A DNA stretch of 5,162 nucleotides from a virus (taxonomy: Duplodnaviria; Heunggongvirae; Uroviricota; Caudoviricetes): IMG/VR virus record IMGVR_UViG_2671180574_000017; one strand, given 5' to 3'. Of this stretch, positions 358-5,162 are shown one piece after another. Numbering within the stretch: the stretch's first letter is position 1; each line of letters starts with the position of its first letter. Both the position numbers and the translations under genes were made by a program. The notes beneath the pieces were generated by a model. It searched no databases. It was not told the origin of the DNA and saw only the letters and a program-made list of their open reading frames with translations.

Positions 358-384
358 TTTACATTCAAAAATATCATTTATACT
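358..384 (+). promoter_or_regulatory. Candidate sigma70 promoter for the plus-strand ORF starting at 425
   Basis: TTTACA at 358-363 and TATACT at 379-384 (15-bp spacer, short), followed by AAGGA RBS at 414-418 and ATG at 425. Confidence 0.3.
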
Positions 385-424
385 TTTCAGAACATCACCA
401 GCAAGGCATAAACAAGGAAACTAA

Positions 425-760
425 ATGAAGTGGATTGTGATTGATACAGTTATCCAGCCATCATGCGGAATATCTTTTTCAGTCATATGGAGTAAAATAA
501 AATTAATAATCTGGTATCAATCGGATGCTTTCTTACCTCCTGAAAGTATATTTACACTGACTCACACAGGCATCATGCTCAATAACAAAGTGCTACCTGT
601 AACCATTTACAACGTAGTACCATTCAATAAAACATTCTGGAATTCAATCAAAAATAGCCAGGAATGCCCTACAAATACAGATAACGTATTGAATGAATGC
701 TTTAATAACCGTTGCACTCTGCAAATATGTCCTTATGGACTAAAACAACAAAGTCCATAA
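425..760 (+). CDS. Hypothetical small AT-rich protein (111 aa, Cys-rich C-terminus); only the first 14 codons lie outside the duplicated module
   Basis: ORF-track ORF with a good RBS and candidate promoter; a stop-free 111-codon frame across a ~35% GC stretch is unlikely by chance; the stop codon sits inside a 12-bp perfect palindrome. No recognisable homology. Copy 2 (3636-3821) lacks the start. Confidence 0.35.
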
Positions 761-2321: not shown

Positions 2322-2544
2322 AGCCCCTCCGGAGAGGGCTGGAGAGTGGCGCTATGTGCCATTGCATGATGCCGGGTGCCTCCCGGTGAATTCAGTACCA
2401 GCACCTGAATCCGCGATTATCCCATATACCTACTCGCTGATTGCCCCTCCGCACAGGGGGATTCACCATGCCAGTTTCTTTTAACAAACTCCCCGCAAAA
2501 CAGACAACTGTCAACCGTCTGAATTGTGAGACATTTAAAAAAAA
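2322..2544. repeat. Third, diverged copy (roughly 97% identity) of the 223-bp core of the module (matches 796-1018 and 3857-4079)
   Basis: Direct comparison shows a handful of substitutions and one 1-bp indel; homology ends sharply on both sides. Confidence 0.85.
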
Positions 2545-2562
2545 GGCCCGCAAAAGCGAGCC
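2537..2562 (-). terminator. Rho-independent terminator immediately downstream of the minus-strand tRNA-Arg
   Basis: Minus-strand RNA GGCUCGC-UUUU-GCGGGCC (one U-G wobble) followed by eight U residues. Confidence 0.7.
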
Positions 2563-2576
2563 AGGGAAAATAAGTG

Positions 2577-2653
2577 TGGCGCGTTGTACTGGATTCGAAC
2601 CAGTGACCGATTGCTTAGAAGGCAATTGCTCTGTCCGGCTGAGCTAACAACGC
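2577..2653 (-). tRNA. tRNA-Arg (anticodon UCU)
   Basis: Manual cloverleaf: acceptor GCGTTGT/ACAACGC, D-stem GCTC/GAGC, anticodon stem ATTGC/GCAAT with loop CTTCTAA, T-arm ACTGG-TTCGAAT-CCAGT, discriminator G, encoded CCA. Confidence 0.85.
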
Positions 2654-2666
2654 ATGATGCAGATAA

Positions 2667-2743
2667 TGGACCGCCATCGGGGACTTGAACCCCGCGCAGC
2701 CAGCTTCGAAGGCTGGCGCTCTTTCCTGATGAGCTAATGGCGG
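2667..2743 (-). tRNA. tRNA-Arg (anticodon UCG), phage-type
   Basis: Manual cloverleaf: acceptor CCGCCAT/ATGGCGG, D-stem GCTC/GAGC, anticodon stem CCAGC/GCTGG with loop CTTCGAA, T-arm CGGGG-TTCAAGT-CCCCG, encoded CCA. Confidence 0.75.
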
Positions 2744-2750
2744 TATGTGA

Positions 2751-2796
2751 TGGTGGCCCTTGCTGGATTTGAACCAGCGACCTGGCGATTATGAGT
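2751..2796 (-). tRNA. 3' partial tRNA-Ile (CAU): 46 nt from the anticodon loop to CCA, with the 5' half replaced by unrelated DNA (att-like remnant)
   Basis: Identical to the 3' 46 nt of the intact tRNA at 4910-4985; identity stops at the anticodon stem-loop boundary. Confidence 0.8.
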
Positions 2797-2905
2797 TGGT
2801 TGATAACCCTTTACTTACAGATACTTAGCGATACTTTTCAATACCTTAGCATTTTTTAAAACTACTGTATAAATACCTGTATATACCCCAAAATACTTCT
2901 TTACG

Positions 2906-2953
2906 GTATCCTATAGGTATCCTGGAGCAGAACAAGCGATTTTCCAGGATACC
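2906..2953. promoter_or_regulatory. Cluster of GGTATCCT repeats (two direct, one inverted) between the tRNA fragment and the integrase start; candidate integrase arm-type sites or int operator
   Basis: GGTATCCT at 2906-2913 and 2916-2923; perfect 11-bp inverted repeat GGTATCCTGGA (2916-2926) / TCCAGGATACC (2943-2953). Confidence 0.35.
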
Positions 2954-2976
2954 AGATCGCTTGGTGGGGTGTATGA

Positions 2977-3528
2977 GTGAAATTATTCAGATTCTCTAAA
3001 GTAAAAATTGCAGAACTGCCAACGCCGGAACATGGACAGGTCGAATATGGTGATACGGAGGTTAACGGGCTGCGTGTCCGTGTAGGTTCGTCTGGTGTGA
3101 AAAGTTTCTGCATTTCCCGTAAGCGTAACGGAAAATTTATTCGTGCAACGCTGGGGCGTTTTCCTGATCTGAGCGTGGATAATGCCAGGGCTAAAGCTAT
3201 GGAACTCCTTGGCGAAGTCGCCACAACGGGGATAAATCCGAACATAGCAAAGCGCACTAACAACAAGGCCATGATAACGCTGAGTGAGGCGATTGACGCC
3301 TACGTAAAAAATCGTGGCCACCGCCTGAAACCCGCCACAGAAAAACAGTACCGCAGCATATTACAGAATTATTCCGGTGACTGGATGGCCCATACCCTCG
3401 CCAGTATTTCCCGCGAACGGGTGGAACAACGGCATAAGGCCATCACTGATGGGGCTGTATGGTTCGGTGCTGATAAAACCACGTTACGGGCTGGGGTTGG
3501 TACAGGAAGCAAGGCACAGGCCGATTAG
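2977..3528 (+). CDS. Tyrosine recombinase / phage integrase, N-terminal fragment (arm-binding and SAM-like domains), 3'-truncated at the module boundary
   Basis: GTG start after a GGTGGGG RBS-like run; the N-terminal ~150 aa shows the typical arm-binding-domain pattern (GL.VRV...G.KSF......GK.....[15 protein letters not shown]...V..GINP) and then a linker ([11 protein letters not shown]...[13 protein letters not shown]); no catalytic domain; the stop codon overlaps the first base of the module. Confidence 0.75.
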
Positions 3529-4274
3529 GAATATCTTTTTCAGTCATATGGAGTAAAATAAAATTAATAATCTGGTATCAATCGGATGCTTTCTTACCTC
3601 CTGAAAGTATATTTACACTGACTCACACAGGCATCATGCTCAATAACAAAGTGCTACCTGTAACCATTTACAACGTAGTACCATTCAATAAAACATTCTG
3701 GAATTCAATCAAAAATAGCCAGGAATGCCCTACAAATACAGATAACGTATTGAATGAATGCTTTAATAACCGTTGCACTCTGCAAATATGTCCTTATGGA
3801 CTAAAACAACAAAGTCCATAAGGAGTTTACTCACATCTGACAAAATCAATATAAACAGCCCCTCCGGAGAGGGGCTGGAGAGTGGCGCTATGTGCCATTG
3901 CATGGTGCCGGGTGCCTCCCGGTGAATTCAGTACCAGCACCTGAATCCGCGATTATCCCATATACCTACTCGCTGATTGCCCCTCCGCACAGGGGGATTC
4001 ACCATGCCAGTTTCTTTTAACAAACTCCCCGCAAACCAGACAACAGTCAACCGCCTGAATTGTGAAGTATTTAAAAATTTCTCCCGCTAACTGATACCCG
4101 GCTAACAGTCTGGCGTTTTCTTTTTCAGCAACGGGAAAGCAACAACCACCACACCCGCCACCAGCACACCGTCAGCCAGCACTGACATTATCCGGCTGCT
4201 GCAATGCCATTCACAAAAACAGTAAGCAATCACTTTTTACCGTAACAGGTGATAATCCAGATATGTATCTACCC
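3528..4274. repeat. 747-bp duplicated module, copy 2 (100% identical to 467-1213)
   Basis: See copy 1; here it lies between the truncated integrase (plus) and a truncated minus-strand ORF. Confidence 0.9.
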
Positions 4275-4622
4275 CAGATGAGTAATCCGAAGTTCATCCA
4301 TACCACAGGTCCTGGCTATTCTGTTGTACTCCTGAACAAGAGCAAATAATTCTGAATTAGCAACCATGAACTCATCGCAAACCCTCTGTATAGCATCACT
4401 ATTCAGAATAATAACGTCTCTTCCCGAAAGACGATCAGGAGTACAGAACAAAACTGTCAAACGGCTGAAGGCCTTTGCTCGTGCTGCATTGACTATATCA
4501 ATACGCTGCCTAAGGATGAAACACCCCGACGCCTCATCAATATTCACTCTACCCACACCATATGAATGATAAATATTTAATGCTGAAAAAACCATTAGAC
4601 CGTATAACAAACACTCAATCAA
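4269..4622 (-). CDS. Hypothetical protein, probably a 3'-truncated fragment (last codon and stop are supplied by the module end)
   Basis: ORF-track ORF (TTG start; internal ATG at codon 10); AT-rich codon usage; no recognisable homology; the frame ends exactly at the module boundary. Confidence 0.3.
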   Translation of the reverse strand: MIECLLYGLMVFSALNIYHSYGVGRVNIDEASGCFILRQRIDIVNAARAKAFSRLTVLFCTPDRLSGRDVIILNSDAIQRVCDEFMVANSELFALVQEYNRIARTCGMDELRITHLG

Positions 4623-4732
4623 TACTTAACAGAACTTTTATTTTTGACAAACATAAAATATTTTCAACAATATCCTGAGCCAGGTATATTTCAGTATAAG
4701 GCTCTGCCGGAAGGAATCTGGAAGAATGAATA

Positions 4733-4809
4733 TGGCGCGCTGTACTGGATTCGAACCAGTGACCGATTGCTTAGAAGGCAATTGCTCTGTCCGGCTGAGC
4801 TAACAACGC
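4733..4809 (-). tRNA. tRNA-Arg (anticodon UCU)
   Basis: Same cloverleaf as 2577-2653, with one acceptor-stem change giving a G-U pair; encoded CCA. Confidence 0.85.
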
Positions 4810-4822
4810 TGAATACCGATAA

Positions 4823-4902
4823 TGGACCGCCATCGGGGACCCGCCCCCGCACCAACAACCCTGTTATCGTGTCGTCTGCTCTTCCTGATAAGCTAATGGC
4901 GG
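4823..4902 (-). pseudogene. Degenerate tRNA-like gene (homolog of the tRNA-Arg UCG at 2667-2743); acceptor and D-arm kept, anticodon arm and T-loop replaced
   Basis: Both termini match 2667-2743 (TGGACCGCCATCGGGGAC ... CTAATGGCGG); the interior is a GC-rich 45-nt segment with no canonical anticodon arm and no TTC T-loop. Confidence 0.55.
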
Positions 4903-4909
4903 TTTGTGA

Positions 4910-4985
4910 TGGTGGCCCTTGCTGGATTTGAACCAGCGACCTGGCGATTATGAGTCGCTCGCTCTCACCACTGAGCTAAAGGGCC
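4910..4985 (-). tRNA. tRNA-Ile2 (anticodon CAU, lysidine-type; ileX/ileZ-like)
   Basis: Manual cloverleaf: acceptor GGCCCTT/AAGGGCC, D-arm GCTC-AGTGGTGA-GAGC, anticodon loop CTCATAA, T-arm GCTGG-TTCAAAT-CCAGC, discriminator A, CCA; closely resembles E. coli ileX as recalled. Confidence 0.85.
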
Positions 4986-5028
4986 GGGAGCAGAATAATA
5001 ACGGTCCGTAATTAATTCCGCAATAAAA

Positions 5029-5048
5029 AACCCGCTCGGCGGCGGGTT
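5029..5048 (-). terminator. Intrinsic terminator upstream of the tRNA array (tR'-like position)
   Basis: Minus-strand hairpin AACCCGC-CGCCGA-GCGGGTT followed by TTTTTTATT. Confidence 0.5.
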
Positions 5049-5095
5049 GTAGAAACTCTTCTAACGTCAGGCATAAAACGCCCATAGTTATGACG

Positions 5096-5123
5096 AATTT
5101 ACCACAGATTCCGGAAAAATCAA
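5096..5123 (-). promoter_or_regulatory. Candidate lambdoid late promoter (PR'-like) reading leftward into the terminator and tRNA array
   Basis: On the minus strand: TTGATT, 16-bp spacer, TAAATT, then ...ATGGG; this resembles the lambda PR' -10 TAAATT and ATGGG transcript start as recalled from memory. Confidence 0.35.
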
Positions 5124-5162
5124 CCTAGTTACCTTTTTTAACTGCCGCTCAGCCCATGCTTC

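Follow-up and report, generated by a model that had tools for sequence, protein, structure and literature searches.

The window (the whole 5,162-nt stretch of viral DNA analysed here, IMG/VR record IMGVR_UViG_2671180574_000017) contains two copies of a prophage tRNA array, one of which is cut, and all of its tRNA genes lie on the minus strand. The first array, as identified by ARAGORN and Rfam, ends with an argO-like tRNA-Arg(UCU) gene (2577–2653; Rfam tRNA, 70.1 bits), which is matched by the arrays of Stx and lambdoid phages and represents the original downstream flank of the target. An argN-like tRNA-Arg(UCG) gene (2667–2743), also matched in phage arrays, lies directly downstream of the cut tRNA-Ile. 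The latter is retained only as nucleotides 31–76 of an ileZ-type tRNA-Ile2(CAU) at 2751–2796 (minus strand), where neither ARAGORN nor Rfam calls a tRNA, and it carries the ileZ-specific bases GGATTT and CCTGG, unlike the ileX, ileY or element versions. The second array comprises a tRNA-Arg(UCU) gene (4733–4809; ARAGORN, with Rfam tRNA matches) and an intact tRNA-Ile2(CAU) gene at 4910–4985 (ARAGORN and Rfam); ARAGORN labels the latter Met, while RefSeq and phage records annotate its homologues as tRNA-Ile/ileZ. Between these two genes, 4810–4909 holds a degenerate remnant of an Arg(UCG) gene, both ends of which align with 2667–2743 around a diverged middle; ARAGORN makes no call there.

The initial annotation read the two tRNA-Ile copies as identical up to the anticodon stem-loop. 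The identity is indeed 46/46 between 2751–2796 and 4910–4955 and ends at 2796/2797 in one copy and 4955/4956 in the other, at the border of the anticodon loop with the 5' strand of its stem, with foreign DNA abutting at 2796/2797. This abrupt boundary exists only on the right-hand side of the fragment. To the left, the similarity of the two copies (2564–2796 versus 4720–4955, 91–97%) spans the whole Arg-tRNA array, so that there is no 46-nt repeat around an insert. The candidate second att copy at 4910–4955 was rejected, given this array-wide similarity, its target-type 3' half and the absence of an element-type half. Likewise, 4910–4985 is not the partner junction that had been supposed: its 3' half is target-type and its 3' flank is array DNA rather than the P arm of an element, and it constitutes an unrecombined, unoccupied attB.

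Beyond the break, 2797–2976 (plus strand) is the P' arm of a satellite attachment site, i.e., the element DNA from the core to the start of the integrase gene (int). These 180 nt have ~97% identity to the spacer of one related element (L001; 6 mismatches) and differ by 1 mismatch in 180 from that of another (L002). The open reading frame at 2977–3528 begins 180 nt past the fragment, and its 183 residues are the first 183 of the 475-residue L002 integrase, in agreement with the integrase N-terminal fragment noted at first reading. The product belongs to PHROG 1 (integrase) and contains only the Pfam domain Arm-DNA-bind_3 (PF13356), while the full-length L002 protein also contains Phage_integrase; the arm-binding domain and the start of the core-binding region survive, and the catalytic domain is missing. 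Since the frame stops at codon 183 without the Phage_integrase domain, the window copy is a relic, an integrase pseudogene of codons 1–183 out of 475 (2977–3526, plus strand, by identity with the L002 integrase). A three-way comparison of the window, L002 int and window positions 379–519 locates the deletion or rearrangement junction at 3526–3528, where 3526 is the last integrase base, 3527 is an orphan A, and a perfect copy of 467–1213 starts at 3528, creating a TAG stop. This junction of int with IraM sequence occurs in 0 of 5,426 complete E. coli genomes and was not found in JGI metagenomes; no sigma-70-like promoter for int emerged from a consensus scan of 2500–3100. The element DNA that survives in the window amounts to 730 bp (2797–3526); the scar is inactive, and nothing functional remains.

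In the remaining window, late-region DNA of a lambdoid prophage and IS600 sequence form a mosaic. Pieces of IS600 occupy 1–38 and 1214–2133, the second being truncated at its left end; as a result of this truncation, the transposase frame is continuous with 12 nt of prophage DNA and forms a chimeric 295-aa reading frame (1202–2089). Exact look-ups of this frame and of the 183-aa integrase fragment returned no match. The presence of IS600 may hint at a Shigella-like source. Positions 467–1213 recur at 3528–4274 as a perfect 747-bp duplication of prophage DNA that includes part of IraM, STnc100 and a DUF3927 reading frame; the duplicate copy begins inside iraM, which is thus truncated there (61-aa reading frame at 3636–3821). 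The two segments 35–1213 and 4266–5162 form a single contiguous 2.07-kb segment in E. coli 042 and many other strains, encoding IraM, a DUF3927 protein and the tRNAs. Hence the proposal that 2797–4909 is the inserted element fails: element sequence is cut at 3526, 3528–4274 duplicates 467–1213, and 4266–5162 belongs to contiguous prophage DNA in strain 042. In lambdoid contexts the reading frame at 4269–4622 is located just downstream of Q antiterminator genes, and a look-up of 4272–4622 returned only contexts of this ordinary lambdoid kind. Three minus-strand copies of the STnc100-family small RNA (Rfam; 786–975, 2311–2500 and 3847–4036; 132, 124 and 132 bits against a gathering score of 47) sit in the prophage late-region segments, one of them downstream of and close to the Arg tRNAs. 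The left flank of the tRNA fragment, 2320–2796 with the fragment included, matches uninterrupted ileZ-argN-argO arrays of lambdoid and Stx phages (e.g., Nil3, 97.7%), which bears out the suggestion that the target tRNA was carried by a prophage.

Complete relatives at chromosomal and prophage tRNA-Ile genes

The integrase region is found in 85 of 5,426 complete E. coli genomes, and four complete loci were inspected (L001, L002, L004 and L005). Full-length relatives are 10–12 kb long and reside at chromosomal ileX or ileY and, in one O111:H8 strain, at the same prophage tRNA. In O111:H8 strain 7-15 45A (L005), the element occupies ileX between nfeF and mug, where a tRNA fragment is followed by int and, at the far end, by an intact tRNA-Ile; the gene order is int, hypothetical, HTH, Icd-like, DUF4222, primase, SSB and a ClpP-like protease/capsid fusion. 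L001 occupies ileY between ypjC and glaH. At ileX of E. coli A33 (L004), a tandem pair with an internal attP-like junction extends over 16041–32782 and encodes capsid, decoration, connector and small terminase proteins, many genes of this record being annotated as frameshifted. Both elements of the pair resemble capsid-forming PICIs and use the same int/att module, and the internal junction reads as a reconstituted attP. The fourth locus, in O111:H8 strain 7-58 72A (L002), lies inside a lambdoid prophage in the order lysis and terminase genes, Arg, Arg, tRNA fragment, element, intact tRNA-Ile and Q-side genes (Q/RusA), the element genes being int, HTH_17, Icd-like, P4-family primase, SSB and a ClpP/capsid fusion. 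Domain searches of this gene content, which falls short of a complete virion gene set, support the assignment of the relatives as probable PICI or capsid-forming PICI phage satellites. An intact recombinant tRNA with an element-derived 3' half is present at the far end of L001, L002 and L005; this partner junction, with its element-type 3' half, is absent from the window.

Occupation of the prophage gene is rare. Nested junctions, on either side, occur only in strain 7-58 72A (1 of the 85 genomes with the integrase region, 1 of 5,426 overall); none was found in JGI metagenomes, and the two junctions in IMG/VR are both ileY-type. Strain 7-58 72A has a single copy of the element and an unoccupied ileX. 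Its sibling O111 strains match its Q-side flank and have an uninterrupted ileZ, and in 7-15 45A, the sibling that was inspected, ileX is the site of the element. Empty target sites are thus observed at 4910–4985 of the window, in the ileZ-argN-argO arrays of Stx and lambdoid phages, in the sibling O111 prophages and at ileX of 7-58 72A. The nested copy of 7-58 72A and the ileX copy of 7-15 45A are 100% identical over the first 2.7 kb and 98.3% beyond. From these sequences, relocation from ileX within the O111 lineage is plausible, but the 98.3% over the remainder of the element means that a simple hop within the lineage is not proven. In the ~30-nt Arg-Ile spacer the window and L002 differ at 5 positions, with ~99.5% identity in the element part, which suggests a separate event or a later exchange in the flank. 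At the empty ileX of 7-58 72A (L032, 21076–21151), we also observe a base change in the 3' acceptor stem, GGCCTCTG versus GGCCCCTG; GGCCCCTG is the version in the displaced fragment of the sibling strain, and GGCCTCTG would make a C-A mismatch. Either a sequencing error or damage after excision, such as Williams and colleagues describe, could account for this change.

Crossover interval and arm-type repeats

The block GCGATTATGAGT (2785–2796) is the sole sequence common to all attL, attR, attP and attB examined, and within it 2789–2795 is the 7-nt anticodon loop. In the junction table and alignment, target-specific and element-specific variants lie to its left and divergence is complete to its right. 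The element's tRNA 3' half is constant, reading TGGTGGCCCCTGTTGGGTTTGAACCAACGACCAA and then GCGATTATGAGT at three integrase-distal junctions (ileX, ileY and prophage ileZ) and also where the two tandem elements meet. The fragment on the int side is always the target's own version, followed by GCGATTATGAGT and then by one and the same P' arm, and the bases that precede GCGATTATGAGT are ...CCCCTGCTGGACTTGAACCAGCGACCAA in the ileX version, ...CCCTTGCTGGACTTGAACCAGCGACCAA in the ileY version and ...CCCTTGCTGGATTTGAACCAGCGACCTG in the ileZ version, which is that of the window. As to the tRNA segment in related attP regions, a check suggested at first reading, the element's attP carries its own version of nucleotides 31–76. 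The base directly before GCGATTATGAGT differs between the ileZ target and the element (CCTG in ileZ versus CCAA in ileX, ileY and the element), which confines the crossover to the 12 bp at 2785–2796. We infer that strands are exchanged within this variant-bracketed interval, which consists of the anticodon loop and the 3' strand of the stem. The junction itself bounds complete 10–12 kb elements base for base as in the window, and the reading of the locus as a tyrosine-integrase att junction with a crossover at the anticodon loop is thereby upheld. These junctions, in which a single element family is seen at four site types (ileX, ileY, prophage ileZ and the tandem attP), form a natural dataset that narrows the crossover of the integrase family to 12 bp and identifies putative arm-type sites.

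The P' arm is present at the same junction in L004 and L005, and its architecture is kept in 11 sequences from 9 genera. It contains a tandem repeat, GGTATCCT-ATA-GGTATCCT (2905–2923, plus strand), a 19-mer that is found on both arms of complete elements, and a third, inverted copy (2946–2953, minus strand; AGGATACC on the plus strand). The window thus has direct copies of GGTATCCT at 2905 and 2916, an inverted copy at 2946 and no further copy, against a chance expectation of 0.17, and at least 3 copies arise in 0 of 200 shuffles. Complete elements contain exactly five copies each, all within ~170 bp of the core, three on P' and two on P, a clustering far above chance; the second tandem pair lies on the other arm, ~55 bp past the tRNA 3' end.

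In a scan of species-representative genomes, the 19-nt doublet GGTATCCTATAGGTATCCT occurs in 24 stretches, 20 of which, all from Enterobacterales, place it beside related integrases or tRNA-Ile genes; the genera are Leclercia, Pectobacterium, Enterobacter, Kosakonia, Rosenbergiella, Erwinia, Trabulsiella, Yersinia, Serratia, Kluyvera, Citrobacter, Moellerella, Superficieibacter and Photorhabdus. The doublet takes one of two positions, either 117 nt past the core, with the inverted copy and the integrase beyond it, or ~100 nt before the core of the CAU tRNA. Its spacing is fixed and its sequence invariant across ~15 Enterobacterales genera, while neighbouring bases vary. The inverted third copy follows 39–40 nt after the doublet in all 10 of the other-genus loci with an int-side doublet, and the integrase N-termini in other genera have 70–77% identity to that of the window. 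A search of the same species-representative genomes for the E. coli-type junction found none. The arm-like repeats pointed out initially behave as arm-type sites: every element has five, distributed over both arms, with constant distances to the core and no variation across genera. Given the arm-binding domain of the integrase, they are the expected signature of arm-type sites, to which the protein would bind.

Several further patterns accompany these repeats. The third arm site, just upstream of int, is bracketed by an inverted repeat, CAAGCGAT (2933–2940) and ATCGCTTG (2956–2963), whose columns are invariant or near-invariant and which all 11 aligned sequences retain; a role as an autoregulatory site or in int regulation is possible. 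There is also a resemblance between this repeat and CCAAGCGATT, the core sequence in the element and in ileX/ileY. ATACY motifs form two sets of three with exact 10-bp spacing in the P' arm (2821/2831/2841 and 2873/2883/2893; 2821–2845 and 2873–2897 in full) and match part of the GGTATCCT complement. The second set is largely kept in other genera (AAATAMC...AAATACT...AAATACT), and the sets may represent additional sites for the integrase or an excisionase. A hairpin, with a T run after it in the tRNA sense, separates the P-arm doublet from the element-borne tRNA 3' half (L002, 22354–22400; L001, 32018–32064; loci L006–L027), and its stem shows compensatory changes across genera (GGGG/CCCC, GGAG/CTCC, GGGC/GCCC and GGAC/GTCC). 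On this evidence the rebuilt tRNA seems to receive its terminator from the element itself. Two Photorhabdus loci (L009, 3573–3714; L017, 1636–1720) have the GGTATCCTATAGGTATCCT doublet and a terminator-like hairpin beside tRNA-Lys(CUU), not tRNA-Ile; ARAGORN calls this tRNA in L009 only, and L017 shows the same 3'-half sequence. This arrangement suggests related elements in which the arm-site specificity was kept and the core target switched.

Origin of the junction

The locus is best explained as the remnant junction of a PICI-type satellite that integrated into the ileZ gene of a lambdoid prophage, a reading to which we give a probability of about 0.85; our confidence in the anatomy is high, that in the history moderate. 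In the mechanism that we propose, the satellite's tyrosine integrase would target tRNA-Ile2(CAU) genes, and the attP of the circular element would consist of its own copy of tRNA nucleotides 31–76, a terminator hairpin, GGTATCCT on both arms and int 180 bp from the core. With the N-terminal Arm-DNA-bind_3 domain bound to the arm sites, strands would be exchanged within GCGATTATGAGT; integration would then produce a complete tRNA with the element's 3' half at the far end and leave the target's 3' half displaced beside int. In the present case the target would have been the prophage ileZ, near-identical to ileX and ileY and situated between the Q antiterminator and the late genes, so that the satellite would have become embedded in the prophage with its genes opposite to late transcription. 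A later rearrangement in this region, which bears IS600 and the duplication, would have removed everything past integrase codon 183, including the far junction. As the window keeps one junction only, integration into its own prophage is deduced from one side.

By sequence, 2751–2796 is the target-derived half of the integrase-proximal junction, and 2751–3526 as a whole very likely represents that junction, holding the displaced tRNA fragment (attR by the Islander/TIGER convention). For annotation, 2751–2796 would be described as a tRNA fragment left by integration and the 183-codon frame as an integrase pseudogene. The idea of one integrative element nested in another survives in part: an intact nested example exists in L002, while the window copy is a 730-bp fossil and not a live element.

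Among the alternatives, the one that fares best accepts the integration and differs on its significance. The prophage tRNA-Ile would be a regular alternative site at which the satellite rides, replicates and travels with its helper like the helper-embedded PICIs (HE-PICIs), 491 of which were mapped to prophage late genes (PMC10111431). The two occurrences (n = 2) with differing prophage flanks are consistent with repeated use of the site, and the satellites encode capsid proteins and would need helper tails. Against this stand the single nested genome among those with the integrase region, the lack of nested junctions in IMG/VR and JGI metagenomes, the decay of the window copy and the orientation of the element, which faces against late transcription, while HE-PICIs are co-oriented with it. 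We consider this alternative unlikely. That the prophage ileZ is at least a recurrent alternative site between the Q and lysis genes (in Stx phages also the toxin genes) of a potential helper is slightly less doubtful, two cases being too few to settle it. Were it true, satellite carriage would move together with the prophage, with possible effects on the expression of late genes or of the toxin, and the window would be a second occurrence with a prophage flank differing from the O111:H8 case. The simplest reading is integration at a secondary site in a phage-borne paralogue, which would be an incidental event rather than a selected strategy.

The junction could also have arisen by homologous recombination between a chromosomal ileX or ileY junction with the satellite and the prophage ileZ, with no integration at the latter. 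The 3' halves of ileX, ileY and ileZ are ~91–96% identical over 46 nt, and the region is recombinogenic, with its IS600 pieces and the 747-bp perfect duplication. However, ileZ-specific bases reach up to the 12-bp block, so that a homologous exchange would need to fall inside 12 bp, an interval so short that it disfavours ordinary homologous recombination as the origin and is itself the prediction of site-specific recombination. RecA-dependent recombination in E. coli normally needs homology longer than 12 bp. In the O111:H8 nested case, moreover, both junctions are clean inside the prophage and ileX is empty. We regard this origin as improbable. It is far less credible still that the lambdoid prophage itself used this integrase and tRNA fragment for integration, as its attP/attL region: tyrosine integrases are common in lambdoid phages, tRNA genes are often their targets and prophage DNA flanks the segment on both sides in the window, but in all complete relatives the integrase is followed by satellite genes (HTH_17, Icd-like, P4-family primase, SSB and capsid) in a unit that ends 10–12 kb away at an intact tRNA-Ile, and the L002 unit sits mid-prophage, between Q/RusA and the lysis and terminase genes, with a Q-side flank matching siblings that have an uninterrupted ileZ.

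With satellite integration into the prophage ileZ as the preferred reading, the mechanism is a textbook one and the satellite family is known; what is uncommon is a prophage-borne tRNA as the target. We found no description of a satellite in a prophage tRNA in the searchable literature, although it may be reported elsewhere. Prophage tRNA genes can serve as landing sites for other mobile elements, through which a satellite can enter a possible helper even if it has no integrase dedicated to late genes. In Stx phages the tRNA array lies just upstream of the toxin genes, and insertions at this array could in principle affect toxin or lysis expression.

Comparison with known integration systems

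PICIs that carry a CLP_protease gene and reside at tRNA-Ile2 are known (Tommasini, Mageeney and Williams 2023, PMC10111431), and L002 and L005 fit this group in target tRNA, ClpP-like protease/capsid gene and P4-family primase. In that paper, the integrase of these PICIs is described as phylogenetically distinctive and the elements are discussed as hosts for other satellites. The text consulted does not mention a prophage-borne tRNA target such as the ileZ gene used here, and the paper states that the group lacks alpA, whereas the relatives analysed here encode a 65-aa HTH_17 excisionase-like protein.

Like L002, the HE-PICIs are satellites located within the late region of a lambdoid prophage, downstream of Q. 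According to PMC10111431, they have a distinct integrase clade, late protein-coding targets, co-oriented genes and a doubled TGTATTGC in attP. Here, in contrast, the target is a tRNA gene and the element genes lie on the opposite strand from the late genes. The motif TGTATTGC is absent from the P' arm of the window, where the doubled motif is GGTATCCT.

We take the window junction to belong to the anticodon-loop tRNA class of P4-like tyrosine integrases. The likeness comprises the crossover at or next to the 7-nt loop, the replacement 3' half in attP, the displaced fragment at one end, the Arm-DNA-bind_3 N-terminal domain and the arm-type repeats on both arms. The arrangement of int differs: in islands of the P4/CP4-57 type int lies next to the intact tRNA, whereas here it adjoins the displaced fragment and is transcribed away from it. 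The class is that of Williams 2002, as cited in PMC10111431.

Finally, secondary-site integration, as for lambda and for off-target HE-PICIs, likewise combines a preferred site with a rare similar one. The preferred sites here are ileX, in both of the loci inspected there, and ileY, in one inspected locus and both IMG/VR junctions. In contrast to a partial match, the secondary site here is a functional paralogue carried by a phage, in which the identity of the core is complete (12/12).
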